Below, piece after piece: positions 5,990 through 64,000 of a stretch of DNA of 64,000 nt. A program made the translations under genes and the position numbers. Below the pieces are notes generated by a model. That model made no database searches. It saw only the letters and a list, made by a program, of their open reading frames with translations, and was not told where the DNA came from. Source of the stretch: Lagopus muta (taxonomy: Eukaryota); NCBI RefSeq assembly GCF_023343835.1, contig NC_064433.1, positions 177,435,076 through 177,499,075 on the forward strand, read 5' to 3'. Each line of letters starts with the position of its first letter. Position 1 is the first letter of the stretch.

Positions 5990-6145
5990 CTGAAAGTCCT
6001 TTTTCAAAGGCTTTGGCTTGGTGTCCACCAGCTTTCTTCTGAATTCAAGCAGCACCTCTTCGCAGTCTTCCAGATGAACCTCTGGTTCCCAGGTATCGTC
6101 ATCAGAGGTATAGCCCTTCCACCGGACTTTGTACAGAATTACACC
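5990..6145 (-). CDS. MPHOSPH8: MPHOSPH8 exon 2: second half of the chromodomain.
   Basis: GVILYKVRWKGYTSDDDTWEPEVHLEDCEEVLLEFRRKLVDTKPKPLKKDFQ (52 codons, phase 0). Acceptor cttttcttacag|GG, donor CAG|GTGTGT. Near-identical to the human MPP8 chromodomain. Confidence 0.85.
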
Positions 6146-7699
6146 CTGTAAGAAAAGAACCAAACACTGAACACGTTACAGCACAGCATTACTCCGTCCA
6201 CTCAATTCCTGTGCCTTCTCTTTGGTGAAGAGGAGGATTTCAAACCTTAACATTTGTAATACAGCAGCACTGCTCACTCAGCTCTAAATTGGAATTTATA
6301 ATCTGTTAGATTCACAATCAATGCCACTTTTGATAAACTGCAGTACCAACAGTGAGAAATGAGAGCCCTTCAATGAGATCAAGTCAAATGTAGACTTAGA
6401 CAAAACTTGACTACTTGCATCTCTGAGTTACAAACTTATTGGTAAAAGACTGTAATTGCAGCCCTAGATCAATTCTTTCAACAGTATCTGAACTGACATT
6501 GTGGTTTCATCCTAAGTGATTTCACCAGAATAGAAGTCTGTTAGCATTAAGGGGAGAAAAAAGGAAAAAAAAGGAGAAAAAAAAAAAAGGTGTGGGTAAT
6601 GAGGAAAGCTTTTCACTAAGCTCTCTCTTGATTTTCTCCTAAATAAATTGAACGGCCCAAATCTCTCGTTCCTCAGGGTGAACTCCTTCCTCTGCTGAGA
6701 TGCCAGGCTTTAGGCCTGCTGGGAGCACAGCCTGTCACAGCCAGGCATCAGCGCTCTGTGCTTCTGCAGCAGCCTTCACTGAATGGCAGAGATGCACCTT
6801 ATGGAGTCAGTGTGGTCACCTTCCTGCACTGACCATGCAGCCTCGTTCAACAGAGGTATGACAGCAACCAGCAGCAAAGTTCAGAAGATAAATCTGTTTT
6901 CCATTAAACATGTAATAGTAAACACAAGGTAGCAAAACCATCCCAGAACTTATTTTCTAAAAAGAAATTATCCTAAGCATTAACCAGAATGCCTCTGGAG
7001 AAGCATAAGAACAGTGCCTTTGGCTCACTAAAGAACAGAGTCAACGTTCCCCAAATCCAGAGGGAATGTCACCCTGCGCCTTGCAGCTTGTCCCTTCAGT
7101 GGGATTTTAATGCAGTACAGCAGCTTTTGAAACACTTGGAATTTCTGTTGCTATTTTCCTGGATCAGGACAAGCCCATGTTCACCTGCCAGCAGGCAGCT
7201 CCCCAGCACAGACTCATCCCCAGAGCGCTGTCTCTCCCACCCGCCCATCACTGCCAGGCACAGAGTATCAGCAGGGGAACTGACAGGAGCTTCTCTATGC
7301 AGCACCCTTCGGTTCCCACAGCTGCAGATGTAGCATGGGAGACCAGAGCCTGTCTTGACAGCTCTGTGCATCTGTTCCAGCTTTGAAAAGCACCTGAAAA
7401 GCATCAGCCTAAAGCTGACTGCATATACTACACCCCATCAAATGCAGCATACAGCTTTTTCCATTCCTCTCAGGCTTGAATGATTACCTGCCATGCCCTG
7501 CATGTCTGTAGCACAGGAGCACAGTGAGAGCCCCATTTGAGAGCCACAGAAAGGGTCTGGAACAACCACAGCCCCCAGGACCAACACACGTTGGGCAAAT
7601 AAATGTCCTGTGTGGCCACGTGCTCCAACCTCGTGCACAGAGCAGCTGCCGCTGGCCTGCACACAGCACAGATTGATCTAGGAGATGTTACTCAGTATA

Positions 7700-8330
7700 T
7701 ACACAGAATCACAGAATTGTTTGAGTTGGAGGGGACCCTCTAAAGGCCATCTAAACCAATCCCCCTGCAACAAACAGGGACACCTACAGCTCCATCAGGC
7801 TGCTCAGAGCCCTGTCCAGCCCAACCCTGAACATCTCCATGGATCCACCACCTCTCCGGGCAATCTGTGCCAGCGCCTCACCACCCTTACTGTAGAAAAC
7901 TTCTTCCTTTTATCTAATCTACATCGCCTCTCTTTTAGTTTGAAACCATTTCCCCATGTCCTATCACTACAGACCCTGCTAAAGTCTGTCCTGTTTTTCA
8001 CTGTAGCTTCCCTTTAGATACTGAAAGGCTCCTCTCAGGTCACCCTGGAGACTTCTCCAGGCTGAACAGCCCCAGCTCTCAGCCCGTCCTCATAGGGGAG
8101 GTGTTCCATCCCATGGATCATTTTTTGGCCCTCCTCTGGATGTGCCCCAACAGGTCCATGTCTCTCCTGTACTGAGGACTCCACTTCTGGACGCAGTACT
8201 GCAGGCGAGGCCTCATCAGCACAGAGCAGAAGGGCAGGATCAGCTCCCTGAGATATTCTAGTGCTCTTCAGAACCGTGTGCAGAGCATGATCCTCCTCCC
8301 CAAGGAGACTGACTTTCAGATCCCGACTGT
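7700..8330 (-). mobile_element. CR1 LINE 3' fragment in MPHOSPH8 intron 1.
   Basis: It starts with the reverse complement of the CR1 tail (cacagaatcacagaat...ggaggggaccc). The ORF2 C-terminal remnant reads ...[16 protein letters not shown]. Confidence 0.7.
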
Positions 8331-8684
8331 AGGAAAAGTGTTTGTGCTTTCAGGACAGATTAACTACTGTGGCTAACACCTCATACCTCCACAGCATAAT
8401 ACTCTCAAGCCACAGACATTTCAGCCAAGATACAACTAAACCACTCCAGCATCATAAATACATAAAGCAATTCTTCATTTGAAGACTCCTCAACATCAAT
8501 GCCTTGTATCTCTGATGCTCCACGGGGAGCAGGTGGACTTCCACACCCATGTGATTCTGACTGAAGCCTAGCACCAAAATATGAGCTACTTAAAATAAAC
8601 AAGTAGAAAATACAAAAATTGTTTTAAAAAAGCTGTGTTTGTTATTTTTTTGATTGTGAAATTTAGAGAATTTCTGAAAGACAC

Positions 8685-9130
8685 TGAGGCTCTGGAGCAC
8701 GTCCAGAGAAGGGCAACAGAGCTGTGAGGGGTCTGGAGCACAAGGCTTATGGGGAGCAGCTGAGGGAACTGGGATTGTTTAGCCTGGAGAAGAGGAGGCT
8801 CAGGGGAGACCTTACTGCTCTCTGCAACTGCCTGAAAGGAGGCTGTGATGAGATGGGGGGAATCTCAGCCAATCGGCCACTGGATAACAGCGACAGCACC
8901 AGAGGGAATGGCATTAAGCTGCACCAGGGGAGGTTCGGGTTGTATGTTAGGAACTTCTCAGGAGTAGCAGTGAGGCAGTGGCACAGGCGGCCCAGGGAGG
9001 TGCTGTGCAGTCACCATCCCTGGAGGTGCTCCAGAAACGTGTGGATGCAGCACTGAGGGATGCGGTCGGCGGGCACGGGCTGACGGTTGGACAGGGTGAT
9101 CTTAGAGATCTTTGCCAACCTCAGTGATTC
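8685..9130 (+). mobile_element. CR1 LINE 3' fragment in MPHOSPH8 intron 1, about 500 bp from the CpG island.
   Basis: ORF2 C-terminus [27 protein letters not shown]...[11 protein letters not shown]. It ends in a CR1-like tail. Confidence 0.75.
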
Positions 9131-9631
9131 GGTGAAGGACTCGTATGAAAACATGCAGGCTGCTCTCAGCGGAACGAGAGAAGGCAAGAGAATTCTGCCT
9201 AACACAGCCTGGAGGCAGCCTTATTTCAGCCGGAGAAGGTCCGCCTGCTCGGAGCGGCCCTCCCACAGCCGCGCTGCCCAGCCCGGCACCGCCGCAGCTC
9301 GGGCACAGCGCAGCGCACAGCTTCGCGCCGCCGACAAAAAGAAGTTTGCGAAGAGACGCGGGGTTCCACCGCTCTTTCGGCCGAGGCGGGAAGACGAGCC
9401 GCGGAGCCAGCAGGGCCGAGTAACGCCCGAGCTCTGCACGGCGGCGCCCGGCGATCCCGCACGCGGCACGGGGGCGTAGCCGAGGACGGAACCCGAACCC
9501 GCGCCGGGGCCGCCGCTTTCCGCGGCCCGGTGCCGCCCTCCCGCCGCCGGAGGGCCCAGCAGCCGTTCCCGGTGCCGCCGCGGCCCCCGGAGGGCGGCGA
9601 GCCGTGACGGGAGACGGCGCCGCGCGCTCAC

Positions 9632-9892
9632 CCCCTCGGTCTTCATGTCGAGGATCTTCTCCACTTCGAACACGTCCTCGTCCTCATTTTCGTCGTCCTC
9701 GTCGTCCTCCTCCTCCTCCTCCTCTTCCTCCTCGCTCTCACCGCCGGCGGCCGCCGCCCCGCCCGCAGCGCCGCCGCCATCCACCACCTCGTTTTCCCCG
9801 GCCGCCGCCGCCGCCGTCTCCGTCTCCTCCTCTTCCCCCGCCCCCTCCAGCCTGGCCGCCGCCGCCTCAGCCCCGCTCCTCGCCGCAGCCAT
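9632..9892 (-). CDS. MPHOSPH8: MPHOSPH8 coding exon 1: start codon at 9890-9892, acidic poly-E/D tract, first half of the chromodomain (DVFEVEKILDMKTEG). Donor GTGAGC lies immediately 3' of 9632.
   Basis: Minus-frame translation MAAARSGAEAAAARLEGAGEEEE...EEEEEEEEEDDEDDENEDEDVFEVEKILDMKTEG, then GTGAGC. It matches the human MPP8 N-terminus (...GEDVFEVEKILDMKTEGG). The exon lies in a CpG island. Confidence 0.8.
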
Positions 9893-10100
9893 TTTGGGCC
9901 GAGTTTCAAACGGCGATGGGGAAAAGCGGCTGCGACACCCACGGCAGCCAATGGGCGCCCGGCTGCCGTGACGTCACGGGAGGGGCGGGGCTACCCGTCC
10001 TCGGCGCGCTGCGGGCGGCTGCGCCTTTGGGCGGCGGGCTTCGACGGGCGGATGGGGTCTTCGTGTGGGAAAAAGTGGTGAACCTTTTGTTGCTGCGCTA
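9893..10100 (-). promoter_or_regulatory. MPHOSPH8: MPHOSPH8 core promoter and 5'UTR inside the CpG island (island about 9200-10100). It carries CCAAT (9948-9952), a palindromic CRE TGACGTCA (9969-9976) and an Sp1 GC box GGGGCGGGG (9982-9990).
   Basis: CpG density is very high. The canonical CCAAT/CRE/GC-box cluster lies within about 100 bp upstream of the ATG at 9892. There is no TATA box. Confidence 0.55.
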
Positions 10101-10384
10101 AGCGCTTCTGCCGGTGCCAGAGTGCTAGCAGAGCTGTCCTGGGAGCAGCTATCAAGGAACACCGTCACTCGTGCTGTCCAGCCCGCGTGAAAACTGGCGC
10201 CGTTGGCACGGTTGGAACAGAAGTGAGAACTGCCGTCAGAAAACCTGCTGACAAGGCGGCCGCAAAGGGATGTTGAGCAACTGGGAAACGGCCAGAGAAA
10301 AGCAGCGTTCTGCTCCTCCGGGGCGCGCTGCAGAAGTACAAAGGCATCCAACTGAGGGCACCGGTAGGCTGCATCGTGAAGGTG

Positions 10385-10390
10385 TTTATT
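10385..10390 (-). terminator. PARP4: PARP4 polyadenylation signal (AATAAA on the minus strand), about 265 nt after the stop codon.
   Basis: This is the only AATAAA or ATTAAA on the minus strand between the PARP4 stop (10651-10653) and the MPHOSPH8 CpG island. Confidence 0.5.
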
Positions 10391-10451
10391 AGGGCTTTGC
10401 TAAACGGTAGCCATCAAAACACGCTGCGTTACAGAGAAGGTAGGACTTTGG

Positions 10452-10515
10452 AAGAAATAAAACAGAGATACTGTAACAGTACTTGTCTGTACAGAGATAC
10501 TGTAACAGTATTTGT
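10452..10515. repeat. Tandem duplication of about 32-35 bp inside the PARP4 3'UTR.
   Basis: acagagatactgtaacagtacttgtctgt / acagagatactgtaacagtatttgtctgt, two copies with one mismatch. Confidence 0.8.
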
Positions 10516-10650
10516 CTGTGGCTATGAAAATCACTCAAGAATAACTCCAGGTGAAAATTACTCAAAATATGTAAAGCAGCAAGAAAAGCTAACGTTGCTG
10601 TTGTCTTAAACAATCACAATCATGGAATGATTTAAGTAGGAGAGCTGCTG

Positions 10651-10801
10651 TCAGTTGCACTCGATCCCCAGTATCTTCTTGGTGGCAGAATCCCAGTCTT
10701 TCCCAAGTTCAAGTCGATAGCAAATAGATGCAAATTGTCCCTCAACTCTTTTTACCCACTCTGTTGCTTTCTTGATGGACTCAAACGCCCAGTGAACACC
10801 G
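10651..10801 (-). CDS. PARP4: PARP4 last coding exon, including the TGA stop at 10651-10653.
   Basis: (x)GVHWAFESIKKATEWVKRVEGQFASICYRLELGKDWDSATKKILGIECN*. Acceptor ttctacacacag|C. It matches the PARP4 C-terminal MVP-interaction region as I remember it (…WAFEAIKQASEWVRRTEGQYPSICPRLELGNDWDSATKQLLGL). Confidence 0.6.
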
Positions 10802-18439: not shown

Positions 18440-18880
18440 TTCTAACTTTCTCTACTCTTACCTCTGGACAGGGGCATGCATTTTCTTTAGTGAGACAACC
18501 ATTCTAGGCAGCCTATTCGAGTGCTCTGTCACCCTCAAAGTAAAGATGTTTTTTCTCGTGTCCAGATGGAATTTCCTGTGTTCCAGTTTTTGCCCACTGC
18601 CTTTTATCGTGTTGCTGGGCACCACTGAAAAGAGCCTGGCCCCATCCACTTGGCTCCTACCCATTAAATGTTTATAGGTGCTGATAAGATCCCCTCTCAG
18701 TTTTATCTTCTCCAGGCTGAACAGTCCCAGTCTCTCAGCCTTTCCTCCTAAGGGAGATACTTCAGGGCCCTCATCATCTCTGTGGCCCTCCACTGAACTC
18801 TCTCCAGTAGTTCTCTGTCTTTCTTGAACTGGGGAGCCCAGAACTGGACAGAGAGGAGTGTCATTGTATTCCACCCCATC
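18440..18880 (-). mobile_element. CR1 LINE 3' fragment (PARP4 intron).
   Basis: Minus-strand ORF2 remnant [24 protein letters not shown]...KLEHRKFHLDTRKNIFTLRVTEHSNRLPR. Confidence 0.7.
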
Positions 18881-38740: not shown

Positions 38741-39178
38741 TGGAATCAAATCATCTGAGTTGGAAGGGACACTTAAAGGTCATCTAGTCCAACTCCAGCT
38801 GCAGTGAAGGGACACCTACAGCTCAGTAAGTTGTTCAGAGCCCCATCCTGCCTGACCTGGAATATCTCCACCACATCTCCAGTGCCTCATCAAACTTCTG
38901 TCAAAATCCTTTTTCCTTATGTCCATTGTAAACCTTCCCTCTTTCACTTTGAAACCATTTCCCCTTATCCTACCACAACAGACCCTACTAAAGAGTCTGT
39001 CCCCTTCCTTCTTATAGCCCCCCCTTCAGACACTGAAATGCTGCTCTCAGATCTCCCTGCAGCCTTCACTTCCGCACTCTGAACAGCCCCAGCTCTATCA
39101 GCCTGTCCTTGTAGGGAAGCTGTTCCATCCTCTGGGTCATTTCTGTGGCCCTTCTCTTGTGCTCTAAAAAATAATGTA
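38741..39178 (-). mobile_element. CR1 LINE 3' fragment.
   Basis: It starts with the reverse-complement CR1 tail (catggaatcaaatcatctgagttggaagggacac). Confidence 0.7.
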
Positions 39179-45689: not shown

Positions 45690-46375
45690 GAATCACAGAA
45701 TCACAGAATTGTAGGGGTTGATGGACCTCCAGAGATCATCGAGTCCCCTGCCAAAGCAGGTTCCCTACAGCAGGTCGCACAGGTAGGCATCCAGGCAGGT
45801 CTTGAACATCTCCAGAGAAGGAGACTCCACCACCTCCCTGGGCAGCCTGTTCCAGTGCTCCGTCACCTCACTGTAAAGAAGTTCTTGCGCATGTTTGTGC
45901 AGAACTTCCTATGCTCCAGTTTCCGGCCGTTTCCCCTTGTCCTGTCTCCACACACTGCTGAAAACAGTCCGGCCTCACCATTCTGCTCCCCACATCTCAG
46001 ATATTTATAGACCTGGATCAGGTCCTCTCTCAGTCTCCTTTTCTCAAGGCTGAACAGACCCAGTTCACTCAGCCTTTCTTCATAGGGGAGATGCTCCAGG
46101 CCCTTCACCATCTTCGTGGCCTTCCGCTGGACTCTTTCCAAGAGATCCCTGTCTTTTTAATACTGCGGAGCCAGAACTAGATGCAGTACTCCAGATGAGG
46201 CCTCACCAGGGCAGAGTAGAGGGGGAGGATCACCTCCCTTGACCTGCTGGCCACGCTCTTTTTAATGCATCCCAGGATGCCATTGGCCCTCTTGGCCACA
46301 AGGGCACACATGGCCAACCTGTCGTCCAGCAGGACGACCACCACACTACTTGAGCATTTTGTCATTGTCATTCTT
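45690..46375 (-). mobile_element. Young CR1 fragment (ORF2 RT C-terminus plus 3' UTR). Its 3' 280 bp are about 98% identical to 35535-35818 in inverted orientation.
   Basis: Minus ORFs ...[42 protein letters not shown] and [47 protein letters not shown]... Tail acagaatcacagaatcacagaattgtaggggttgat. Confidence 0.8.
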
Positions 46376-49499: not shown

Positions 49500-50200
49500 T
49501 TACTTCATATGATATGGCTTCACTAATTTAACATAACCTATGATCACCTGCCTTGATCTGCTGGTGATACTTTGCCTAATGCAGCCAAGAATGCTGTTAG
49601 CCTTCTTGGCAGCAAGGGCATACTGATGGCTCACATTCAACGTGTTGTGTACCAGGACCCTGGGTTCTGTTCTGTAAAGCTGTTTTCCAGCTGGGCAACC
49701 CCCAGCATGTACTGGTGCACAGGGTTCTTCCCACTCAGGTGCAGACTTATTGAACCTCAGCTTCCTGTCAGCCTGTTTCTCCAATCTGATCAGGTCTCTC
49801 TGATGACAGCATGACTCTGGTCTATCAGCTGTTCCCCTCAGTTTTGTGTAACCAGCAAACTCGCTGAGGATACATTCTGCCCCATCATCCAGATCATTAA
49901 TGAAGGTGCTGAAGAGGACTGGCCAACATATTGACCACTGAGGCACTCTGCTCCTTGCTGGCCTCCAACAAGACTTTGCACAACAGGTCCTCCAGGCCTG
50001 GTCATTCAGTTTTTGATTCACCTCACTATCCAGACCATAATTCAACAGCTACTCTATGAGAACATTATAGGAAGAAGTGTCAAAGGCCTTACTGAAGTCT
50101 ACACAGACAACAGCAACTGCGCATCTTTCATTTATGAGACCAATCATTTCATTTCAGAAGCTTATCAAACGGGTTAGGCACGACATCCCCGTGACGAATC
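49500..50200 (-). mobile_element. CR1 fragment (reverse-transcriptase region).
   Basis: Minus-strand ORF with ...LAAKKANSILGCIRQSITSRSRQVI..., the CR1 ORF2 RT motif. Confidence 0.55.
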
Positions 50201-55189: not shown

Positions 55190-55900
55190 TACAAGGAAAG
55201 CACGCTGAAAGCGCACAGCCCCGCCCGCCCAGCAAAGGCACGGCTAGCGCAGATTGCGGGTTCGTTCCGCGGTCGCCTCCTCACTGCCGCCCCCACAGGG
55301 CGGGAAGGCGGGGAGCGGCCCCTCCCCCAGCAACGGGGCGGGGCAGGCATCACCGCCTTCGTGCGCCTGCCCCCGCCCCTCAGAGGCCTAGGCAGGGCTG
55401 GAGGGTTTGCAGTGTCAACCTATTAACGGCATCCTCGCCGCTGAGCATTTTGGGAGCTGTAGTCGAGCGCAGAGAGATCGCTACGGGGCTGCAGGAGGCG
55501 GGCGGCGGCTGGGGACTACAAATCCCGGCGTGCCCCGCGCCGCGCGGCGTCCAGCCTGTGGCGGCGGGAGGCTGTGCTATGGCGGCGCGTTTGTAACTGC
55601 GAGCGGCGGGAGGTCGCGGCGCTGAGTGGCGGCGCTGCTGCGGCGGCGGCCTCGGCTTCGGCCATTTGGAATATTACGCTCTGGGGAAGCTTTGAGCGTT
55701 TCGAAATCTGCTCGTACGGAGTTCTGTAGGAGTTCCGGAAGGGTTCCTGTGGGGATCCCGAAGTGCCGCCGGGCGGTGATGGTGGTGGGAAGAGGAGTGA
55801 GAAGCGAACGCGCAGCTGTTTGTGGAGTTACCGCGGGAAGGTTAAGTGCGAGTTGAAATATGCACAGTAAACCGATCGTGTTCACTTGGGCATCTCTGCG
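55190..55900. promoter_or_regulatory. CENPJ: CpG island at the CENPJ 5' end. It is probably a bidirectional promoter that also serves PARP4.
   Basis: CpG density is very high, with several GC boxes (CCCCGCCC at about 55222 and GGGGCGGGG at about 55336). It lies immediately upstream of the CENPJ first coding exon. No other CpG island exists near the PARP4 5' end. Confidence 0.6.
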
Positions 55901-56151
55901 GCGTTGCATTAGTACGAGGATTTGTGGCTTGACTGCTTCTTATAAACACGATCGGCTGGTTTTAAGAGTGACTTCCCGATGCTGGGAGTCTCTTCCTGTA
56001 GATTTTTTTCTTTTATCTGCTTAATTTCTCGGAGCTAAAAACAAGTGAGCATCCACCCCTGATACTTGTGACTGCACCTTTTACTCCCCTGGCGCTACAC
56101 TATGTTATGTTAATGCTGCATCAGCAATTGCGTTGGAATGTAATTTACAGG

Positions 56152-56541
56152 ATGCCGACTGTTGAAGAGCTGAGTAGTGAACAAAACTTCATTGCACACT
56201 GGATGTCCAGTAATTCCCGTGCTGGTGTCTTATTAGATCCTCATTTTACTGGATTAAAAATCACCACAGAAAGTCTGTTACCTGGACCTGAAAGCATCAC
56301 GGCTTTCCCCGGTGAAGTGCAGAATCTCTTAGACAGCTGTTCTGTAAGTGAGGACTCCTTGAGTGAAGAGCAATTGCTTGAGTCTGGCAGCTCCTGTGCA
56401 CTTCAGCAAAATAGCACTGAAATGTCTTTTCCAGCAACAGCATATAATGTAGGAAGCTCTAAAGCAGACTTCGGCCACAGTGAAAAGGATGCTCAGAATA
56501 AATCTGATTGCAATGATCCTCTCTTACAAAAGCTTGAACAG
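56152..56541 (+). CDS. CENPJ: CENPJ first coding exon (ATG at 56152, two nt after the acceptor tttacag|G at 56150/56151).
   Basis: MPTVEELSSEQNFIAHWMSSNSRAGVLLDPHFTGLKITTESLLPGPESITAFPGEV...NDPLLQKLEQ (130 codons), then GTAATA. It matches the human CENPJ N-terminus ([32 protein letters not shown]...DPLFKKLEQ). Confidence 0.8.
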
Positions 56542-56609
56542 GTAATAAATTTTAAAAATTCTAGAATTTCTTGATATTCATAAATTAAGGTATATTTTGT
56601 TCCTGTGCA

Positions 56610-57010
56610 TCCATGGAATGGAACACCTCTCCTATGAGAACAGGCTGAGAGAGCTGGGGCTGTTCAGCCTGGAGAAGAGAAGGCTTTCAGTATCTAAAGA
56701 GGAGCTACAGGAAAGAAGGGGACAGATTCTTTAGTGGGGTATGTGAAATTAGAACAAGGAGAAATGGCTTCAAGCTTAAAGAGGGGAGATTTAGGTTGGA
56801 TTTAAGGAAAAAGGCTTTAACAGTGGGGGTGGTGAGGCACTGGCACAGGTTGCCCAGAGATGTTGTTGATGCCCCATCCCTGGAGACTTTCAGGGTAAGG
56901 CTGGATCAGGCCCTGGGCAATCTGATCGAGCTGTGCATGTCTCTGTTTGTTGCAGGGGAGCTGGACAGATAAAAGAAACTTTAAAGGGCCTTTCCAACTC
57001 TAAGTAGATT
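56610..57010 (+). mobile_element. CR1 3' fragment in a CENPJ intron.
   Basis: ...[20 protein letters not shown]...KLKEGRFRLDLRKKALTVGVVRHWHRLPRDVVDAPSLETFRVRLDQALGNLIEL. Confidence 0.75.
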
Positions 57011-57468
57011 CTAGTATTCTATAATTTTTCATACCTGAAAGTATCTGTAGAACATAAGCTTAAAGAGCAAGCCCTGAGTCAGTTACGTGTCAGTTGCGTA
57101 AAGATTAGTGTCCTCCTCATAACATACTGTTATTGAGAGCCTCGTTGGTTTTCATAGGCACAGATTTCAGTTCAAAATGAAATTATGTTTAGCGCCAGCA
57201 TATTTGCTCTTAGAATCTTCTTACCTCAAAAGGTGAACATTTCCCAAATTGCAGAAATGAGAGTTCTGTTATCTACTATTTGTGGATTGGTCGATTAAAA
57301 ACTAGTGGCTTGGAGTGCACTAGAAACAGCATGAATTTCATTCATCAAAGCACTTTGTATGCAATGTGTCATGTTACAGTTAGATAATGGGATGTCTTTA
57401 AAACTTGTTGTCTTGATGATGCTTATGTTTTGGTGCATTCTAAGTATACTTACCCCACAGTACATTGA

Positions 57469-57491
57469 TTTTTTTTTTTTTTTTTTTTTTT
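57469..57491. repeat. Poly(T) homopolymer of 23 nt that forms the polypyrimidine tract of the CENPJ exon 57507 acceptor.
   Basis: Uninterrupted T run, followed by aaatttcttaaaaag|CTG. Confidence 0.9.
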
Positions 57492-57506
57492 AAATTTCTT
57501 AAAAAG

Positions 57507-57630
57507 CTGAAGGAATTGCAACAACAGAAACAGGAACAGCTAAAGAAACAACAGATGGAGCAACTTCAAAGGCTAATGGAAGAACAGCAGAAGTTACTTA
57601 GCATGGTATCTGGTCAGACGGCAGTTCTTG
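57507..57630 (+). CDS. CENPJ: CENPJ exon.
   Basis: [41 protein letters not shown](G). Acceptor (T)23aaatttcttaaaaag|CTG, donor G|GTAAGT. It matches human [37 protein letters not shown]. Confidence 0.75.
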
Positions 57631-57649
57631 GTAAGTTGAGAAATAAAGC

Positions 57650-57875
57650 ATAGGATCACAGAATCATAGAATGGCCTGGGTTGAAAAGGATCACAATGAT
57701 CATCGGGTTTCAACCCCCTGCTATGTGCAGGGCTGCCAACCACCAGACCAGGCTGCCCAGAGCCACATCCAGCCTGGCCTTGAATGCCTCCAGAGATGGG
57801 GCATCCACAGCCTCCTTGGGCAACCTGTTCCAGTGCATCACCACCCTCTGAGTGGAAAAAATGTGTACTTTATTA
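57650..57875 (-). mobile_element. CR1 3' fragment in a CENPJ intron.
   Basis: Reverse-complement CR1 tail (ggatcacagaatcatagaatggcctgggttgaaaaggatcacaatgatcatc...). Confidence 0.7.
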
Positions 57876-58900
57876 AACTGAAGAATGTGATCTATTGTTC
57901 TTGTTTAAGTTAGAAAGTATATTCAGTGTTCATTTTAAGACTACTTGATTAGTCAAAGATAAATGCATCATTTTAATGACTGCTGTGTGGTACTGCTAAA
58001 GGAATGCTATCCTTTTGCCAACTTTCATTGTAATTAATGATGGGAGCCCTTGTTTTGAAGAAAATATCGTAAATATAAAAGACAAAATAGGCAGTTGCAT
58101 TTCTTTCAATACTTCTGATTGCTTTAAGCTATCACTGTATCCAAATGAGGTGGTGCCTCCTTGTTTGTGCTCACAGTACATGTTTTCCCATGTGATGATC
58201 TCAATGAGACTGGGGAACTCATCTGTACTGAGAAACAAACATCTGTAACCTGGATCAGTGTTCCAGTCCAATTTAGCTTGTGCACAGGGAGAGGACAGTC
58301 CTGGACTGGAAGAAGCCCCCAGAGTTGAGAGAGGGGCATCTTCTCTTGCAGGTAGTATCAGACCCACCTGATTTAAATGATTATATTTCTTTTACGTAGC
58401 CTATCTGAGAAACTGAAGTTAGGCTTTGAACAAAAACTAAATTGCCTAATGATTTTTTCTGAGTTGGGAACATGAGGATGGAGGCTGGCTCTTGCCCTCC
58501 TGTGTATGTTTATTTTGTTCCTGTGAAACACTGGTTTGTTTGAAGGCTGTACTCTAATGGCTGAAAGTAAAAAGCTAAGCTAAGACCTGGGCATTCATTG
58601 GGCTTGACAAGTTTTTTTGTTTGTTTGTTTGTTACAAATCAGTCATCTGAGTAACAGAATCACAAGGACAACAAAGCTCATGCTCTGAGTAATTGGTCTC
58701 CACATACACAGAACAGTGAAATTATAACAAAAGTTAATGCAGAATGCATCTCATCTTTGGACAACGGTTGTTCAGTACTGTCTGCCTGTAAAAAGCAAGG
58801 CCCCTGAAAATGCAGAACTGCTTGAAAGGCAGTGGAAGTGACAACTATATTGGTTAGGCATTTGGAGAAAAATAATTGGGAGTGTGTGTTCCCTTCCCAT

Positions 58901-58921
58901 CCCCCCCCCCCCCCCCCCCCC
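58901..58921. repeat. Poly(C) homopolymer of 21 nt in a CENPJ intron.
   Basis: cccttcccat(c)21aaagtt. Confidence 0.9.
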
Positions 58922-59960
58922 AAAGTTACTGAGCATAACTCACTGCTTGTAGTGATGCTTGTATACAAATTTTGGTTTCCTTTGCTCAGTATGGTCAGCT
59001 CAGCACCCTCAGTGTTCCTGTGAGTGTTGTTAAAAGCAGCAGGAGGAAAAATCAAGTTCTTCCATCAGCATGATGTGTTTGTCTGTTCTAGTAGGGAAAA
59101 AAATGGCTACTGCTAAAACTTATGTGTGATAAAGACTGGGAAAATGGTAAAATAATGACAGATCCTTGATGGCTGCATTATTTGGTAAGTTAGAATGAAC
59201 TGAAACCGTATTTTCAAGTAGCAATTAGAAAATAGTCCATACGGGGATATAGAATGTCTCCAGACCAACTGTGTTGTGAGGCTAAATAACTGAATTGGAA
59301 TTAGGAATCAAGATGGATTGGCAAAGAGATGCTATGGCATAGTCATAATGTCCTTAGAGTTGGAAGGCTGATGAAGAATTGTTTATACACCAGAAGAAAC
59401 GCACCAGAATTCTTCACCTTTTCCTGTTTCTTAGCTGTACCACTGGCACCGTGTTACCATTTATGCTGTTATGACTGGAATAGCATTTTTGGTTTTAAAT
59501 TTCATAAGGAGTTTGTAAATCTGTAGAGGTTTCAGAGAAAAGAAATGGGAGTGAGTTACAAGCATGAAGTATGATGACAAGCTTTTAATCTTGGTCTAAG
59601 GTGATGTGAAAGGATGAATTGATCTTGATTTTTAAGTATAGCAGACATCCAAGCTTCTGTTATTTTACCTTTAAGCCATAAGTTAGCAAAGATGATGAAT
59701 CAGAATGGAGTGCCAAGGTGTGTGTCTGGGGGAGAAAACTTATACGTGGTTGGATATTGCTTTCAAAGGAGTGCTCAAATTCAAACAAGAGTTAATTTGG
59801 GAAAATCATAGGACTTCTTTTGTGTGGGAATTCAGACTATGTGACCATGAAGCTGTTTTAATCTGGTCTGAATGCCACTTAAATGTAAGCTGAGCTGACT
59901 GTTTGTTTGCATGCTTTTGGGAGGAAAAAAACCCAAATTTGTATTCTGTTGATTTCATAG

Positions 59961-60093
59961 GAAAAAGCATGAGGTGTCCAGAACAAAAGATGGAAAAATT
60001 GATGGAGACTGAAGATCCACCCGTGGATCCTTTCAGTGCGGAACTCCCTGAGAACAGAGGAAAACAGTTATGGGTGACTAATGCAGAGGAAAG
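59961..60093 (+). CDS. CENPJ: CENPJ exon.
   Basis: (G)KSMRCPEQKMEKLMETEDPPVDPFSAELPENRGKQLWVTNAEE(R). Acceptor gatttcatag|GA, donor AG|GTAATT. Its phase links the flanking exons exactly. Confidence 0.65.
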
Positions 60094-61508
60094 GTAATTC
60101 AGAATGTGATTTGGTAAAAAGTGTAAGTAATTTATACTGCAAGTTTGAATGAATTCTGAATCCCAATTCAGATATTCTCAATTTGTATAGCTTTCTTAAG
60201 CAGGGATTACGTTTCACTAGTACAATGGAGAGCAATAGTAGGAGAGGCTCTGGCTTGAGATTGTGACAGATGTGCTGTGCTGGCTGAAGAGGTGTGTGCA
60301 GCGTGGGGTGATGATAGTGTAGAAGCACATTCTGGTATAGGCTTAGTAGATTAGCAGTCACAATTACTGCACTCAATCTGATTCATTACAATCTCCTCTC
60401 CACTGTTACACAGCAAAAGTAGTGATGTTGAGGAAGAGTGTAAGGCCACAACTTTTTAGTTTGTTACCAGGAGTTATGTTTGTTTAAGCGTCTATGTGTG
60501 GCTAAGAAATAACAATGCTTGTGGGAGAAGCCTTCTCATGGATGTTAGAAGCTTTTTGTTGTTGCTGTTGTTGATGGAATAAAAGTAGTGGTTGGCACTG
60601 TTTTGGAGCTCTGCCTTGTCTGCCTTGCCTGTCATAACATGAAATACTTGTTCCAGGCAGTACTGGGTTGACCCCAGGCAGCCACTTGGTCACCCTGCCT
60701 CAGAATTCAATGGAGGTGAATTAGAAGAAGTAAAATGACATTTGTGGGTTGAGATAAAGACACTTTATCTTCACAACAAGTGAAGAAAAGAGGGGAAGAG
60801 ACCCCAGCATTAAGAAGGTGGCCATCTCCCACAACCAGACCGATGCACAGTTGGTCCTGTGTAGTTTTAGAAAACCAAGTCTGCAGTTCTCATTGCTGAA
60901 CATGATGTTGTGTGGCATGGAACTCTTGGTCACTTTGGATCAACTCTTCTGGCTCTGACCTCTCTCTCTTGCCCATCCCCAGCCTATTTGATGGGGTGAA
61001 CAGAGTGAGCAGCATGAGAAACCAGAGAAAACCTGGATGCTCTGCAAGAAGTGTTCAACAACAGCGCAAAAACGTTGGATGTTACCATCACTGTTTTGGT
61101 CACAAATCCAAAGCAGCACCATATGGACTGCTGTAAAGAAAGTTTACTCCATCCTAGCCAGACCCAGAATGCAGGCTGATCTCTGTAGGATTTCTGTGAA
61201 CCAATGTGAAGGACATACCATAGAAATTATCAGTATGACTACAATCTGAGTGCGAGTCTGATGGCTCGGGCAGAAGAATGGCTGGTCGCAATGGCAATTT
61301 TATTTAGCTGTGTATGAATAATTTTGTCAAAAGATAATCAACTATTACTACAGTGCATTTTTCAGATTAGCTTTGCCACTCAGTGACTAAAATTCTTCAT
61401 AATTGTCATCGTTTAGGTAATTGTATCCCAGGTCTTTGATTAGCAGTGATGTTAAATGCAATTAAATTATACAGAAATGTTAATTTTTTATTTTTTTAAT
61501 TACTACAG

Positions 61509-61614
61509 ACCTATTAAAGCTGCGATTCAGGAGAAGAAACAGACCTTTGAGGAATTTGTGGAAGAACAGATGAGAATAGAAGAGCAGCGTCTGAAGCAAA
61601 AACAGAAGTTACAG
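61509..61614 (+). CDS. CENPJ: CENPJ exon.
   Basis: (R)[35 protein letters not shown]. Acceptor tactacag|A, donor CAG|GTTTTC. It matches human [34 protein letters not shown]. Confidence 0.75.
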
Positions 61615-61954
61615 GTTTTCTATTCTTTCTGACTTGTTTTTTAAATATTATACCGTGGTGTGATGGGTGTTTTAAGAACTTAGACAGCAGGTTCTGGCAT
61701 CAAAAGCTAATGCTGCAATATTCACATCTTAATAATTCATCTTCGAAATAAAACAATAAGTCCTAACTATTTTGTTTAAGATGCTTTCAGAAATCCAGTA
61801 GAAGTAAATGCGCTTTATAAATTCCTACTAATATGTGGGGTTTATTTGGAAAACAAGCAAAAAAAACCAAGCAAATTCAAAAACCCAGCAACTTAAAACT
61901 GCACGAGGGATTTAATGTTGTGTGTGTGTGTTAATTTTCCTTATCCCCTTTCAG

Positions 61955-63560
61955 GAGACATATGGATCAGCCATTCAAAAACCTGTGATCAAACGACCCT
62001 TCCTAAAAAGAGGAGAAGGCCTAACAAGGTTTACTAATGCCAGATCTAAGATAGCAAAGTTTCGGGAAAACATGCTGAAGTCTCCACAGAGGGCTTCAGA
62101 TGACAGAAATGTGAGAGTGGACAGATCACAAATGCAAAAGAAAAGTCTGCCTTCTGGCAAAGAACTGGTTTCTGAGAGCGCTCTTACACCATGTAAAAAC
62201 AATAACCAGCCTGACAAAGCCAAACGTCCTCTTCAGAAGACCCTGGTACTCAGAAATCACAATGGAAAAAATTCCTTGCCACTAGAAACAAGAATGCAAC
62301 CGGGAAAAAATCTTAATGGACAGATTAAGGTTTCTTTTTCGCCAGAAGTCAACAATAAAATAGAAAATAAAGAGAATGTAGTGGAATTTACTAAGTCTAG
62401 CACTGGCAGCAAAATCAGAAACAAACTACCTTACACAGAAAAGCCTCCATTATCTTGTGAGATGGCTGATGCCTTTTCTAATTCTAACTGTTCTGTGACT
62501 CACTCTGTAAAGGATTCAGAACTGTCTTTTGAAGTTTCATTTCAGAATAAGTTGGAAAACTGGGAAAAAGAAAAGGAAAAAGAAAACCTGGAATTAGATG
62601 AATTTTTGTTTCTAGAACAGGCTGCAGATGAAATATCTTTCTCAAGTAATTCTTCATTTGTGCAAAGGATCTTAGATCGAGATCAGCAAACTTCACAAGG
62701 ACGCAGAATGTCCTCTACCCCTATCAAGGCAAAACAGCAGCAAGTAAAGGAATTTGCAGTTAAACTCATTAATAAGAAAAAGGCAGAATGTGTGGCTGTG
62801 GGAAATAAAAATGATAAAGCAGTTAATCGTGCGATGTCAAATTCAGAAACAGCTTCTAGACTAAAGGATCCACTGAATAAAGCAGATAGTGTAACGTTTT
62901 CAGGTTCTTTCATGACAGCAGCTCCTGCTTTAAAAAGTACTCAGTGGATTGTGAATGAAGACAAAGATGAAGAAAATGGTAATAGTACTACAGATTCTGA
63001 GCAAGAATTTGAGACCACTTTAAAATATGAAAATGAAGATGTTAAGACATCCTTTATGAGCCATAGAGAAAGCGATCCAGAATTGTTAGATTATGGGAGT
63101 TCTGCTACAGATATCAGCAAAGAAAGCAAAAATGGAAGTGCCAACCTTGACTTGTCAGACAAAGATGCACAGTCAAACCAAAAGGTTGGAAAAGCTTCAG
63201 ACCACCAAAGAAGCATGTCTAGTGTAAACAGGAATAAGTTTGAGTTTGATGATGAGAGAACATGGAGTGATCTTGATGAAAATTATGTTCATGATGGTTT
63301 ACCTGAAAAATACACTACAACGCCCTCACAGACTGACTTTTTCAGTAAGAATGATACACCTTTCCCAGATAGAGCATTAAAGAGAAAAGTTGCCTCAAAG
63401 AGGGGGGAAGAACTGTCTAAACAGCCTGCAGTGGACAGCGATTCAAATGGACCTCCATCAGACCTGATGGTGAAACTGTTTCCCTCACTGAGACCAAAAC
63501 AGAAGACAGGTTGTCATCCAGAGCATGAAATCAAATCAAATGTGGAACAGGAGTCAGGAG
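61955..63560 (+). CDS. CENPJ: CENPJ large central exon (about 535 codons). The gene continues past the window end.
   Basis: ETYGSAIQKPVIKRPFLKRGEGLTRFTNARSKIAKF...SFQNKLENWEKEKEKENLELDEFLFLEQAADEISFSSNSSFVQRILDRDQQ...KFEFDDERTWSDLDEN...LKRKVASKRGEELSK...LMVKLFPSLRPKQK. Acceptor cccctttcag|GAG, donor G|GTGAGA. Long blocks are identical to human CENPJ (PFLKRGEGLARFTNAKSK; KEKENLELDEFLFLEQAADEISFSSNSSFV; MDFDDERTW; KRGEDLSK; MMKFFPSLKPK). Confidence 0.7.
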
Positions 63561-64000
63561 GTGAGAGAACAGCAACTGGTAGGAAATGTTGAAGAATACA
63601 TGTTTTACAAGTCTTTCCTTCTAAGGCTTACGCTGCAGCTTGATGCTACACCAAAAGGTACAGACTTCTACTGTAGGCACCCTTCATCTCTTCTGGTGTC
63701 TGGTGCCACATGCAGTCATTGCACAGCCTGCAGAATGATAAGTTCAGTGAAACCCTTCATTTATTTCACCCTGAAGTCTAGTTTTTTGTCTCATCACCTC
63801 ATTCAACTAACTTAATCCAAAGGCGCTTGACCACTGTTTCAAACTCAAGCAAAGAGGCAAAAGTGTGCTGAAAATGAAGCAGTGCCTCCCTTTCCAGTGA
63901 GTGCATCTACACCGCATTTGGGTAGTGCCATGCACTCCTAGGTTACATTGTTCCTGTAGTAAAACTGGATGCGTCAGCAATGTCTGTTTTCTCTCTGCAG

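Follow-up and report, generated by a model that had tools for sequence, protein, structure and literature searches.

Two genes lie in tandem on the minus strand of the window, the whole stretch of 64,000 nucleotides of Lagopus muta DNA analysed here: PARP4 and, following it in the direction of transcription, MPHOSPH8. Both identities were confirmed, and so was the same-strand order proposed in the earlier note. The PARP4 coding exons extend from an ATG at 52336-52334, which is preceded by a splice acceptor, to position 10651, a span of about 42 kb. This coding region (10651-52336, minus strand) comprises at least 33 exons, placed by a tblastn exon map against Tympanuchus PARP4 in which the identity per exon was mostly 90-100%. 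The terminal coding exon (10651-10801) begins behind the acceptor cag/C at 10801 and is closed by a TGA at 10653-10651, the stop codon already noted there. Its encoded protein ends in GVHWAFESIKKATEWVKRVEGQFASICYRLELGKDWDSATKKILGIECN directly before the stop and shows 93% identity to residues 1565-1619 of Tympanuchus PARP4 (tblastn). The open reading frame P0001, identical to that of the terminal exon, has a precomputed Pfam assignment (PF26156, PARP4_MVP-ID). Local Pfam scans of the exon and of P0001 gave no match; therefore the identity was taken from the concatenated exons, a query that matched PARP4 at E=0 with Galliformes as the best matches. The coding part of MPHOSPH8 exon 1 (9632-9892, minus strand) has its ATG at 9892-9890, contains 87 codons, is followed by a donor GT at 9631-9630 and ends in DVFEVEKILDMKTEG, with which the chromodomain starts. 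Exon 2 (5990-6145, minus strand) continues in phase 0 with GGT GTA ATT and encodes the remaining chromodomain. A PDB search with exon 1 alone found no match because the query was too short and of low complexity. When exon 2 was added, the two exons matched the MPP8 chromodomain (9h77, 3lwe) at E=3e-33 and the Pfam Chromo family at 1e-16. No RNA family was found in the whole 64-kb window by an Rfam search at gathering thresholds, so that the region cannot be attributed to an ncRNA gene. Suspected CR1 ORF fragments were without a match in Pfam scans.

The PARP4 stop codon and the MPHOSPH8 ATG are 758 bp apart, a hard upper bound on the intergenic distance. A scan of this interval for 13 common poly(A) hexamer variants returned a single match, the AATAAA at 10385-10390 (minus strand) that had been described as the only signal; none of the 13 variants is present on the sense strand of 10650-10391. 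From the density of AATAAA on the minus strand of the window, 0.58 copies would be expected by chance in 758 nt, and the lone copy exceeds chance because the hexamer and its downstream element are kept across birds. The PARP4 hexamer aligns with CTAATAAA(C/T)A of Cygnus, Apteryx, Limosa, Probosciger and Daphoenositta and is invariant in six of six Logan contigs. Together with the GU-rich downstream element it aligns with the proximal poly(A) site of kiwi, swan, godwit, parrot and passerine, and the conservation of both from kiwi to the window was weakly visible in a second alignment too. The GU/U-rich element, GTTGGATGCCTTTGTACTTCTG, is located at 10331-10352 (minus strand) and is conserved in birds, its core CAGTTGGATG..TTTGTA being kept in the five non-galliform species. 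Cleavage is predicted between 10353 and 10371 (minus strand), at the CA dinucleotides of 10371-10370 or 10354-10353, which lie 15-32 nt past the hexamer, a placement based on how vertebrate poly(A) sites are usually spaced. A UGUA motif (TGTA, 10430-10433, minus strand) identified by motif scan precedes the hexamer by about 40 nt, where a CFIm site is usually found, and may have that role. The predicted PARP4 site thus combines the hexamer-to-CA spacing, the GU-rich element and the UGUA of a canonical vertebrate poly(A) site. The predicted 3'UTR (10365-10650, minus strand) would be about 286 nt long with 38.5% GC, and its first 190 nt or so can be aligned to the 3'UTR of other birds. Judged from these alignments, PARP4 mRNA has one ancient, canonical poly(A) site with a predicted cleavage position.

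Inside this 3'UTR lies a tandem duplication, which had been described as a 35-bp repeat at 10452-10515. TRF corrects this to a 29-bp unit in 2.0 copies at 10462-10519 (minus strand; score 109), 96% identical with one mismatch, each copy holding the palindrome ACTGTTACAGT. The duplication is present in all six Logan contigs and absent from Cyrtonyx and the other birds aligned. It is predicted to form a hairpin of -22.8 kcal/mol (z = -2.46). A conserved regulatory hairpin was considered and rejected on account of that absence and of a z-score of only this size, and the duplication is probably a recent, neutral change of the 3'UTR.

The MPHOSPH8 promoter elements follow on the same strand at the positions given in the earlier note (GC box 9990-9982, CRE 9976-9969, CCAAT 9952-9948, ATG 9892-9890). 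The Sp1-type GC box, CCCCGCCCC (9982-9990), is conserved in the birds aligned and is overlapped by CCCTCCC (9984-9978), a MAZ-like motif in antisense. In galliforms the CRE, TGACGTCA (9969-9976), is perfectly palindromic; other birds have TGCGTCA in its place. The inverted CCAAT box (ATTGG within GATTGGCT, 9948-9952) is invariant in all six species aligned. MPHOSPH8 is predicted to start, and to have its 5'UTR, in a block that runs from GTGTCGCAGCCGCTTTTCCCC to GTTTGAAACTCGGCCCAAA (9893-9947, minus strand) and hardly varies between kiwi and galliforms. All birds compared (six species aligned) keep the core promoter block, and we regard both it and the PARP4 poly(A) site as genuine because both are conserved among birds. 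The GC skew of the sense strand changes sign at about 9950-9900, from -0.11 to +0.44, which fits a start site in a CpG island (PMC3787257). The island itself spans about 9200 to 10350 and takes in spacer, promoter, exon 1 and the first part of intron 1, with GC of 0.56-0.82 and CpG observed/expected ratios of 0.75-1.4; in 200-nt windows starting from 9200 to 10200 the GC is likewise 0.56-0.82 and the ratio 0.77-1.42. These values lie above the thresholds applied (GC >0.55 and CpG o/e >0.6 over >500 bp, overlapping the first exon), and no TATAWA was found by motif scan. Composition, overlap with exon 1, the Sp1, CRE and NF-Y sites and the skew switch agree in describing a TATA-less CpG-island promoter. 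As the island reaches about 10350, it extends upstream as far as the PARP4 poly(A) site.

The two genes are close, although the figure of about 300 bp between PARP4 end and promoter in the earlier note was loose, since 395 bp separate AATAAA and GC box; likewise, what is observed where PARP4 had been said to terminate is its poly(A) signal. The GC box lies about 365-380 bp past the predicted cleavage zone, the CCAAT box about 400-420 bp, the ATG about 460-480 bp and the predicted start about 0.41-0.47 kb. The need for rapid termination that had been pointed out follows from this geometry. The short tandem intergenic region proper, from predicted cleavage to predicted start zone (9941-10364, minus strand), measures 424 bp with 64% GC. 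Its sense strand contains more C (36%) than G (27%), a skew of -0.14, with values of -0.30 to 0.00 in 100-nt windows from 10450 to 9951; the antisense strand is accordingly the G-rich one. No run of four or more G was found on the sense strand of the spacer, nor any CTCF core, sense-orientation Sp1 or TATA motif. G5AG5 and G3AG3 are absent from the sense strand between poly(A) site and promoter, and the MAZ-type GGGAGGG from that of 10650-9850, where only its reverse complement occurs (9984-9978). The spacer being without known termination aids, efficient termination within 0.4 kb is assumed here, not explained.

The distance between stop codon and ATG differs widely among species. It is 495 bp in Cyrtonyx and 428 bp in Callipepla, both New World quails without assembly gaps at the locus, 2230 bp in Cygnus, 2507 bp in Apteryx and about 2.7 kb in parrot and passerine (2.2-2.8 kb over these last four birds); Limosa was left out of the comparison of lengths for an 843-N gap in the spacer. 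In mouse the distance is 8952 bp, and in human the two genes are not known to be adjacent. In the turtle Emydura no MPHOSPH8 exon was found within 10 kb downstream of PARP4, and a GC-rich stretch starts only at the far end of that 10-kb flank. An AT-rich spacer of 1.3-1.5 kb can be aligned among Apteryx, Cygnus, parrot and passerine, and no similarity to it was detected in galliforms, here represented by the window, the Logan contigs, Cyrtonyx and Callipepla. The series of distances and the alignable non-galliform spacer indicate that galliforms lost about 1.3-1.5 kb of ancestral spacer. On this comparative evidence the tight spacing is a derived state specific to galliforms, the spacer being kept in palaeognaths, waterfowl and Neoaves. 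The New World quails have lost the orthologous AATAAA and presumably use an ATTAAA at +134 or +141 past the stop; in the window this motif is interrupted at the corresponding position, where the duplication begins. Other birds have extra AATAAA copies at about +1410. That the quail junction is tighter still argues that the arrangement is tolerated.

We think it probable that PARP4–MPHOSPH8 is an ordinary tandem junction of two housekeeping-type genes in a phasianid galliform, with an ancient poly(A) site, a conserved promoter and a lost spacer, at which little interference is to be expected. PARP4 RNA would be cleaved at about 10371-10353, the uncapped downstream RNA would be degraded by XRN2 as in the torpedo model, with PCF11 taking part, and Pol II would be released within about 0.4 kb, before or at a nucleosome-free, factor-occupied MPHOSPH8 promoter. 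MPHOSPH8 transcription would initiate independently at about 9940-9900. Between closely spaced genes PCF11 is enriched and has a protective role (PMC6458999). The junction would therefore resemble the hundreds of short tandem intergenic regions (STIRs) known from human, and its two genes would interfere little and seldom yield fusion transcripts.

The layout belongs to a known class of closely spaced tandem genes and is not exceptional, because 457 human tandem pairs lie <2 kb apart, with no sign that their co-expression is avoided (PMC8972054). Like human STIRs (Nissani & Ulitsky 2022, PMC8972054), of which U2AF2-EPN1 with 479 nt is an example, PARP4 and MPHOSPH8 are coding genes on the same strand, non-overlapping and with <2 kb between transcribed bases, and the upstream poly(A) site is well conserved. 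Their spacer is promoter-like and GC-rich (64%, against a mean of 58% in STIRs). The composition of STIRs is a statistical tendency and not a strict rule, and the sense guanine enrichment that forms part of it is missing here, the sense strand being C-rich. A further difference is that the pair lies 9 kb apart in mouse, the tightness having arisen in galliform birds only. The human C2-factor B junction, as cited in PMC8972054 (Ashfield et al. 1991/1994), has a near-identical distance of 421 bp between poly(A) site and promoter and poses the same problem of rapid termination; it contains a MAZ (G5AG5) pause element, whereas PARP4–MPHOSPH8 offers only the CCCTCCC of the GC box. With the genes of the terminal GC-skew/R-loop class (PMC3787257) the pair shares a tandem neighbour within 2 kb and a positive skew after the MPHOSPH8 start site. 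However, the skew past the PARP4 poly(A) site is negative, so that R-loops are not predicted to assist in ending PARP4 transcription.

It is rather unlikely that the MPHOSPH8 CpG-island promoter acts as a roadblock that helps to end PARP4 transcription, by means of bound Sp1, CREB/ATF and NF-Y, paused Pol II and divergent antisense transcription. In an extension of this idea, released polymerase might pass to MPHOSPH8 and loosely co-regulate the pair. The edge of the island adjoins the poly(A) site, three conserved factor sites stand 365-420 bp past the predicted cleavage site, and a G-rich antisense strand is what divergent promoter transcription would lead one to expect; at human STIRs, in the findings cited from PMC8972054, Pol II builds up, and the downstream gene responds to pausing and R-loop factors. 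For the present locus, however, the argument is purely inferential. The plus-strand AATAAA at 10456-10461, where an antisense transcript could end, is polymorphic among the Logan contigs, and the same promoter is shared by birds with a spacer of 1.5-2 kb, so it did not evolve for a terminator role.

That PARP4 polymerases often overrun the MPHOSPH8 promoter, causing interference or PARP4-MPHOSPH8 chimeric RNAs, seems to us quite unlikely as well. The spacer is very short, has a single poly(A) signal and lacks a G-rich pause element or a co-oriented GC skew, and an AATAAA that could serve as a fail-safe is missing from MPHOSPH8 exon 1 and intron 1 and from the sense strand over 3.9 kb past the MPHOSPH8 ATG. 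Where PCF11 is lost, close gene pairs show read-through and downregulation (PMC6458999), and regulated tandem chimeras are known in chick and quail, such as TH-INS (PMC1524912), where galliform tandem neighbours are likewise joinable by read-through and splicing. Yet close tandem pairs in human seldom yield fusion reads (reads that touch exons of both genes make up 0.6% of the long nascent reads, PMC8972054) and their co-expression is not avoided, the PARP4 poly(A) site is canonical and has been conserved for about 100 million years, and quails tolerate a junction of 428-495 bp. The standard splice, which would join MPHOSPH8 exon 2 to the penultimate exon of PARP4, does not keep the reading frame: ...TCA AG joined to GGT GTA ATT gives AGG GTG TAA, a stop after two codons. 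A fusion protein by this route is excluded, and the RNA would be a likely NMD substrate. No galliform PARP4 or MPP8 transcript contigs were among the matches of the protein searches.

We hold it improbable that the loss of the galliform spacer, by moving the poly(A) site into the CpG island and leaving no known sequence aid to termination, made the promoter the terminator of PARP4 or let PARP4 transcription measurably modulate the output of MPHOSPH8 (HUSH) by read-through; if true, this would be a lineage-specific rewiring in game birds, most extreme in New World quails. The main use by PARP4 of another 3' end, either a non-canonical one inside 10650-10400 or one beyond the MPHOSPH8 promoter, is very unlikely. 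The presumed ATTAAA of the quails and the additional AATAAA copies of other birds would speak for it, but 10650-10391 holds none of the hexamer variants, the quail position is interrupted in the window, and hexamer and downstream element are both conserved and show no variation in the population sample. Lastly, although short-read bird assemblies break in this GC-rich region (the gap in Limosa, 49 N in exon 1 of Daphoenositta), there is hardly any chance that faulty assembly, for instance the collapse or deletion of a GC-rich segment, made the spacer look short, given six Logan contigs from other samples that are 98.1-98.7% identical to the window, two gap-free quail assemblies with even shorter spacers, and four independent contigs (L002, L003, L005 and L006) that span from 10700 to past 9850 with SNPs and small indels only and whose shared junction structure excludes assembly error.

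The analysis of the ordinary tandem junction that we favour gives a clean annotation, in which the PARP4 3' end and the MPHOSPH8 promoter are fixed in a galliform genome and both elements are ancient. Current models are not challenged, as hundreds of comparable human junctions have already been described. The tight spacing is the result of a derived galliform deletion and not a general feature of birds or amniotes. The locus thereby provides a modest natural experiment, in which the same poly(A) site and promoter stand about 0.3-0.4 kb apart in galliforms and about 1.5-2 kb apart in waterfowl, ratites and Neoaves, and the contrast between galliforms and waterfowl could show how much spacer Pol II termination needs.

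MPHOSPH8 lies on the minus strand downstream of PARP4, with 758 bp between the PARP4 stop codon and the MPHOSPH8 ATG, so the same-strand order and short spacer claimed in the earlier note were essentially right. Concatenated candidate exons between 52.3 and 10.6 kb matched PARP4 (E = 0), with Galliformes as top matches, and tblastn of PARP4 proteins placed 33 segments on the window at 52345-10654. Most of these exons are 90-100% identical to Tympanuchus and aggregate identities to Phasianus (87%), Cyrtonyx (81%), Gallus (80%) and waterfowl (76-77%) are all lower; therefore, the window comes from a phasianid close to grouse. MPHOSPH8 exon 1 (ending DVFEVEKILDMKTEG) and exon 2 (6145-5990) matched the solved MPP8 chromodomain (E = 3e-33) and Pfam Chromo, and a longer query retrieved MPP8 of many birds, reptiles and mammals. 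The PARP4 coding unit covers about 42 kb from the ATG (52336-52334, minus) to the stop at 10651, as had been proposed. A splice acceptor directly before this ATG implies a 5'UTR exon upstream, probably in a second CpG island at 55200-55900. This island is flanked by the PARP4 ATG exon on one side and, on the other, by sequence matching in order the annotated CENPJ 5' region of Cyrtonyx (56000-64000, opposite strand); it is likely a bidirectional PARP4/CENPJ promoter, in which case PARP4 would be transcribed over about 45 kb. Several copies of an interspersed repeat occur in the introns of both genes and upstream (7930-8113, 38939-39128, 56600-56783), with further ORF-like fragments, e.g. at 18461-18880, 45866-46374, 49503-50048 and 57597-57904; their motif (…LPREVV…PSLE.FK.RLD…) is presumably CR1-like, and a Pfam scan of the ORF fragments gave no match.

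The last PARP4 exon runs on the minus strand from an acceptor (cag at 10801) to the stop codon TGA at 10653-10651. A scan between this stop and the MPHOSPH8 ATG for 13 common variants of the poly(A) hexamer gave a sole match, AATAAA at 10390-10385 (minus), which confirmed the single signal and the stop reported before. On the same strand, a TGTA (10433-10430) is located 40 nt upstream of the hexamer, CA dinucleotides for predicted cleavage (10371-10370 and 10354-10353) 15 and 32 nt past it, and a GU-rich tract, GTTGGATGCCTTTGTACTTCTG, downstream at 10352-10331. The hexamer is 395 bp from the MPHOSPH8 GC box, and the predicted cleavage site is about 365-380 bp from the GC box, 400-420 bp from the CCAAT and 460-480 bp from the ATG; the layout first described stood, but its figure of about 300 bp did not. 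In the multiple alignment after the stop, CCCTAATAAACACC and CAGTTGGATGCCTTTGTA of the window match CTAATAAA(C/T)A and CAGTTGGATGGTTTTGTA of swan, kiwi, godwit, parrot and passerine, whose hexamers are placed 417-477 nt past the stop. Because hexamer and downstream element align across these birds, the PARP4 poly(A) site is ancient. A precomputed annotation gives PF26156 (PARP4_MVP-ID) for P0001, a 54-aa ORF matching the terminal exon (10651-10801), and a local hmmscan against Pfam-A (E <= 0.01) found no match for P0001 or the 49-aa exon peptide; this discrepancy is between tools, not between biological findings.

The 3'UTR does contain a tandem duplication, previously given as 35 bp at 10452-10515, but it measured 29 bp x 2.0 at 10462-10519 (96% identity). 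It is recent, since it is missing in Cyrtonyx and the five non-galliform birds aligned. A hairpin is predicted for it (-22.8 kcal/mol, z = -2.46), and nothing suggests a function. A plus-strand AATAAA adjoining it (10456-10461) could mark the end of a divergent antisense transcript from the MPHOSPH8 promoter; position 10460 is variable, however, and two of the six Logan contigs, which derive from other sequencing samples, read AATACA there.

The MPHOSPH8 elements named earlier downstream of PARP4 were all seen in the minus-strand sequence: a GC box (9990-9982), a perfect CRE (9976-9969), an inverted CCAAT (9952-9948) and an ATG in good context (9892-9890). In the CpG profile a single island extends between about 10350 and 9200, which therefore places the PARP4 poly(A) site on its upstream edge. 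Sense GC skew is negative up to about 9950-9900 and strongly positive thereafter (+0.44 to +0.53), the pattern of CpG-island start sites (PMC3787257). In the promoter alignment (A2) the GC box, CGTCA, GATTGGCT and a block of about 55 nt into the ATG are kept from kiwi to galliforms. Compared over 9941-9976 with bird loci L011, L012, L009 and L007, galliform promoters are about 30 bp shorter between the inverted CCAAT and the conserved start-site block, and they carry a perfect TGACGTCA at the site reading TGCGTCA in other birds. Within exon 1, trinucleotide and 39-bp repeats (9690-9842) encode acidic (E/D) and Gly/Ala-rich tracts, whose lengths vary among the birds compared. On the sense strand, MPHOSPH8 exon 1 and intron 1 (5990-9892 minus, 3.9 kb) have a single ATTAAA (7111) and no AATAAA at all, against an average of 0.77 AATAAA per kb on the window minus strand. 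Poly(A) signals are depleted downstream of promoters, and this pattern agrees; read-through polymerase would thus meet no fail-safe site for 3.9 kb past the ATG.

Orthologous junctions were retrieved from Cyrtonyx and Callipepla (New World quails), Cygnus (waterfowl), Apteryx (palaeognath), Limosa, Probosciger and Daphoenositta (Neoaves), a turtle and mouse. MPHOSPH8 is same-strand downstream of PARP4 in all birds compared and in mouse, CENPJ is divergent upstream in the four bird loci with enough flanking sequence to include it, and a chicken GWAS table shows the same gene order (PMC10976558). The stop-to-ATG distance is 495 bp in Cyrtonyx and 428 bp in Callipepla (both gap-free), 2230 bp in Cygnus, 2507 bp in Apteryx, about 2.7 kb in Probosciger and Daphoenositta, 8952 bp in mouse and >10 kb in the turtle. 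In kiwi, swan, parrot and passerine, the AT-rich 1.3-1.5 kb after the stop aligns at 69-75%; for galliforms, alignment recovered only the initial ~190 nt and the end next to the promoter. By parsimony, the stretch from the downstream element to the CpG island would have shrunk by about 1.3-1.5 kb in galliforms, with a further loss of about 200 nt within the 3'UTR, and on these comparisons the tight PARP4-MPHOSPH8 spacing is a galliform novelty. In the quails (L010:52282-52777, L015:50630-51057) the ancestral AATAAA and downstream element are gone and an ATTAAA is kept 134-141 nt past the stop, at a position broken in the window at the start of the duplication. This ATTAAA (+141 and +134) precedes the GC box by only about 200-260 bp and is probably the signal used for PARP4 polyadenylation in quails. 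The AT-rich sequence of L011:52951-54460, L012:56617-58140, L008 and L009 has a second AATAAA at about +1410, common to kiwi and swan; because of it, non-galliform birds may have a long PARP4 3'UTR isoform, likewise ending just ~0.4-0.5 kb short of the CpG island. The PARP4 terminal exon of the parrot Probosciger aterrimus (L009:6944-7209) has several in-frame stops (…ELSIKH*SG*EEKWFQSVCY*LELRKDWDSATKK…), which could represent PARP4 pseudogenisation or assembly errors.

PARP4 RNA would be cleaved at about 10371-10353, and Pol II would be released by the torpedo (XRN2) with PCF11 assistance, either within the 0.4 kb of GC-rich spacer or on reaching the occupied promoter, and MPHOSPH8 would initiate independently at about 9940-9900; a roadblock role of this promoter for PARP4 Pol II would be reasonable. 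The spacer (10364-9941) is 64% GC with a C-rich sense strand (skew -0.14), on which a motif scan found no G-run of 4 or more, GGGAGGG or CTCF core. Having neither GGGAGGG nor such a G-run, it is without a MAZ-type element, unlike the 421-bp C2-factor B junction. Co-oriented terminal GC skew, in which close tandem genes are enriched (PMC3787257), is absent as well. Since these known aids are missing and no sense AATAAA follows for 3.9 kb, termination within 0.4 kb is assumed, not explained. In human, 457 tandem pairs are <2 kb apart (e.g. U2AF2-EPN1, 479 nt) and show no avoidance of co-expression; nascent coverage has dropped almost to baseline by the next start site, and only 0.6% of nascent long reads include exonic sequence from both members of a pair (PMC8972054). 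In human and zebrafish, closely spaced genes have PCF11 enriched between them and are guarded by it from interference (PMC6458999). The layout is common in the literature, and PARP4-MPHOSPH8 is a lineage-specific case of known short tandem intergenic regions and no new kind of element.

PARP4 read-through or interference with MPHOSPH8, as the earlier note had it, is a possible but unsupported reading: tandem-gene chimeras occur in chick and quail (TH-INS, PMC1524912) and RNA-level PARP4-MPHOSPH8 chimeras could arise, but the still tighter quail junctions indicate that the arrangement is tolerated. Moreover, the usual splice from the PARP4 penultimate exon (...TCA AG) to MPHOSPH8 exon 2 (GGT GTA ATT) reads AGG GTG TAA, so that the chimeric product would be a likely NMD target and a PARP4-MPP8 fusion protein by this route is excluded by the stop after two codons. 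An assembly artefact was rejected because Logan contigs spanning the junction have the same structure: all six come from other sequencing runs and share 98.1-98.7% identity with the window, and the four that cross the whole junction differ by SNPs and small indels only, with hexamer, duplication and promoter motifs identical. What the galliform junction offers is the same poly(A) site and promoter at about 0.3-0.4 kb versus about 1.5-2 kb in waterfowl, a natural contrast on spacer dependence from which its modest value derives.
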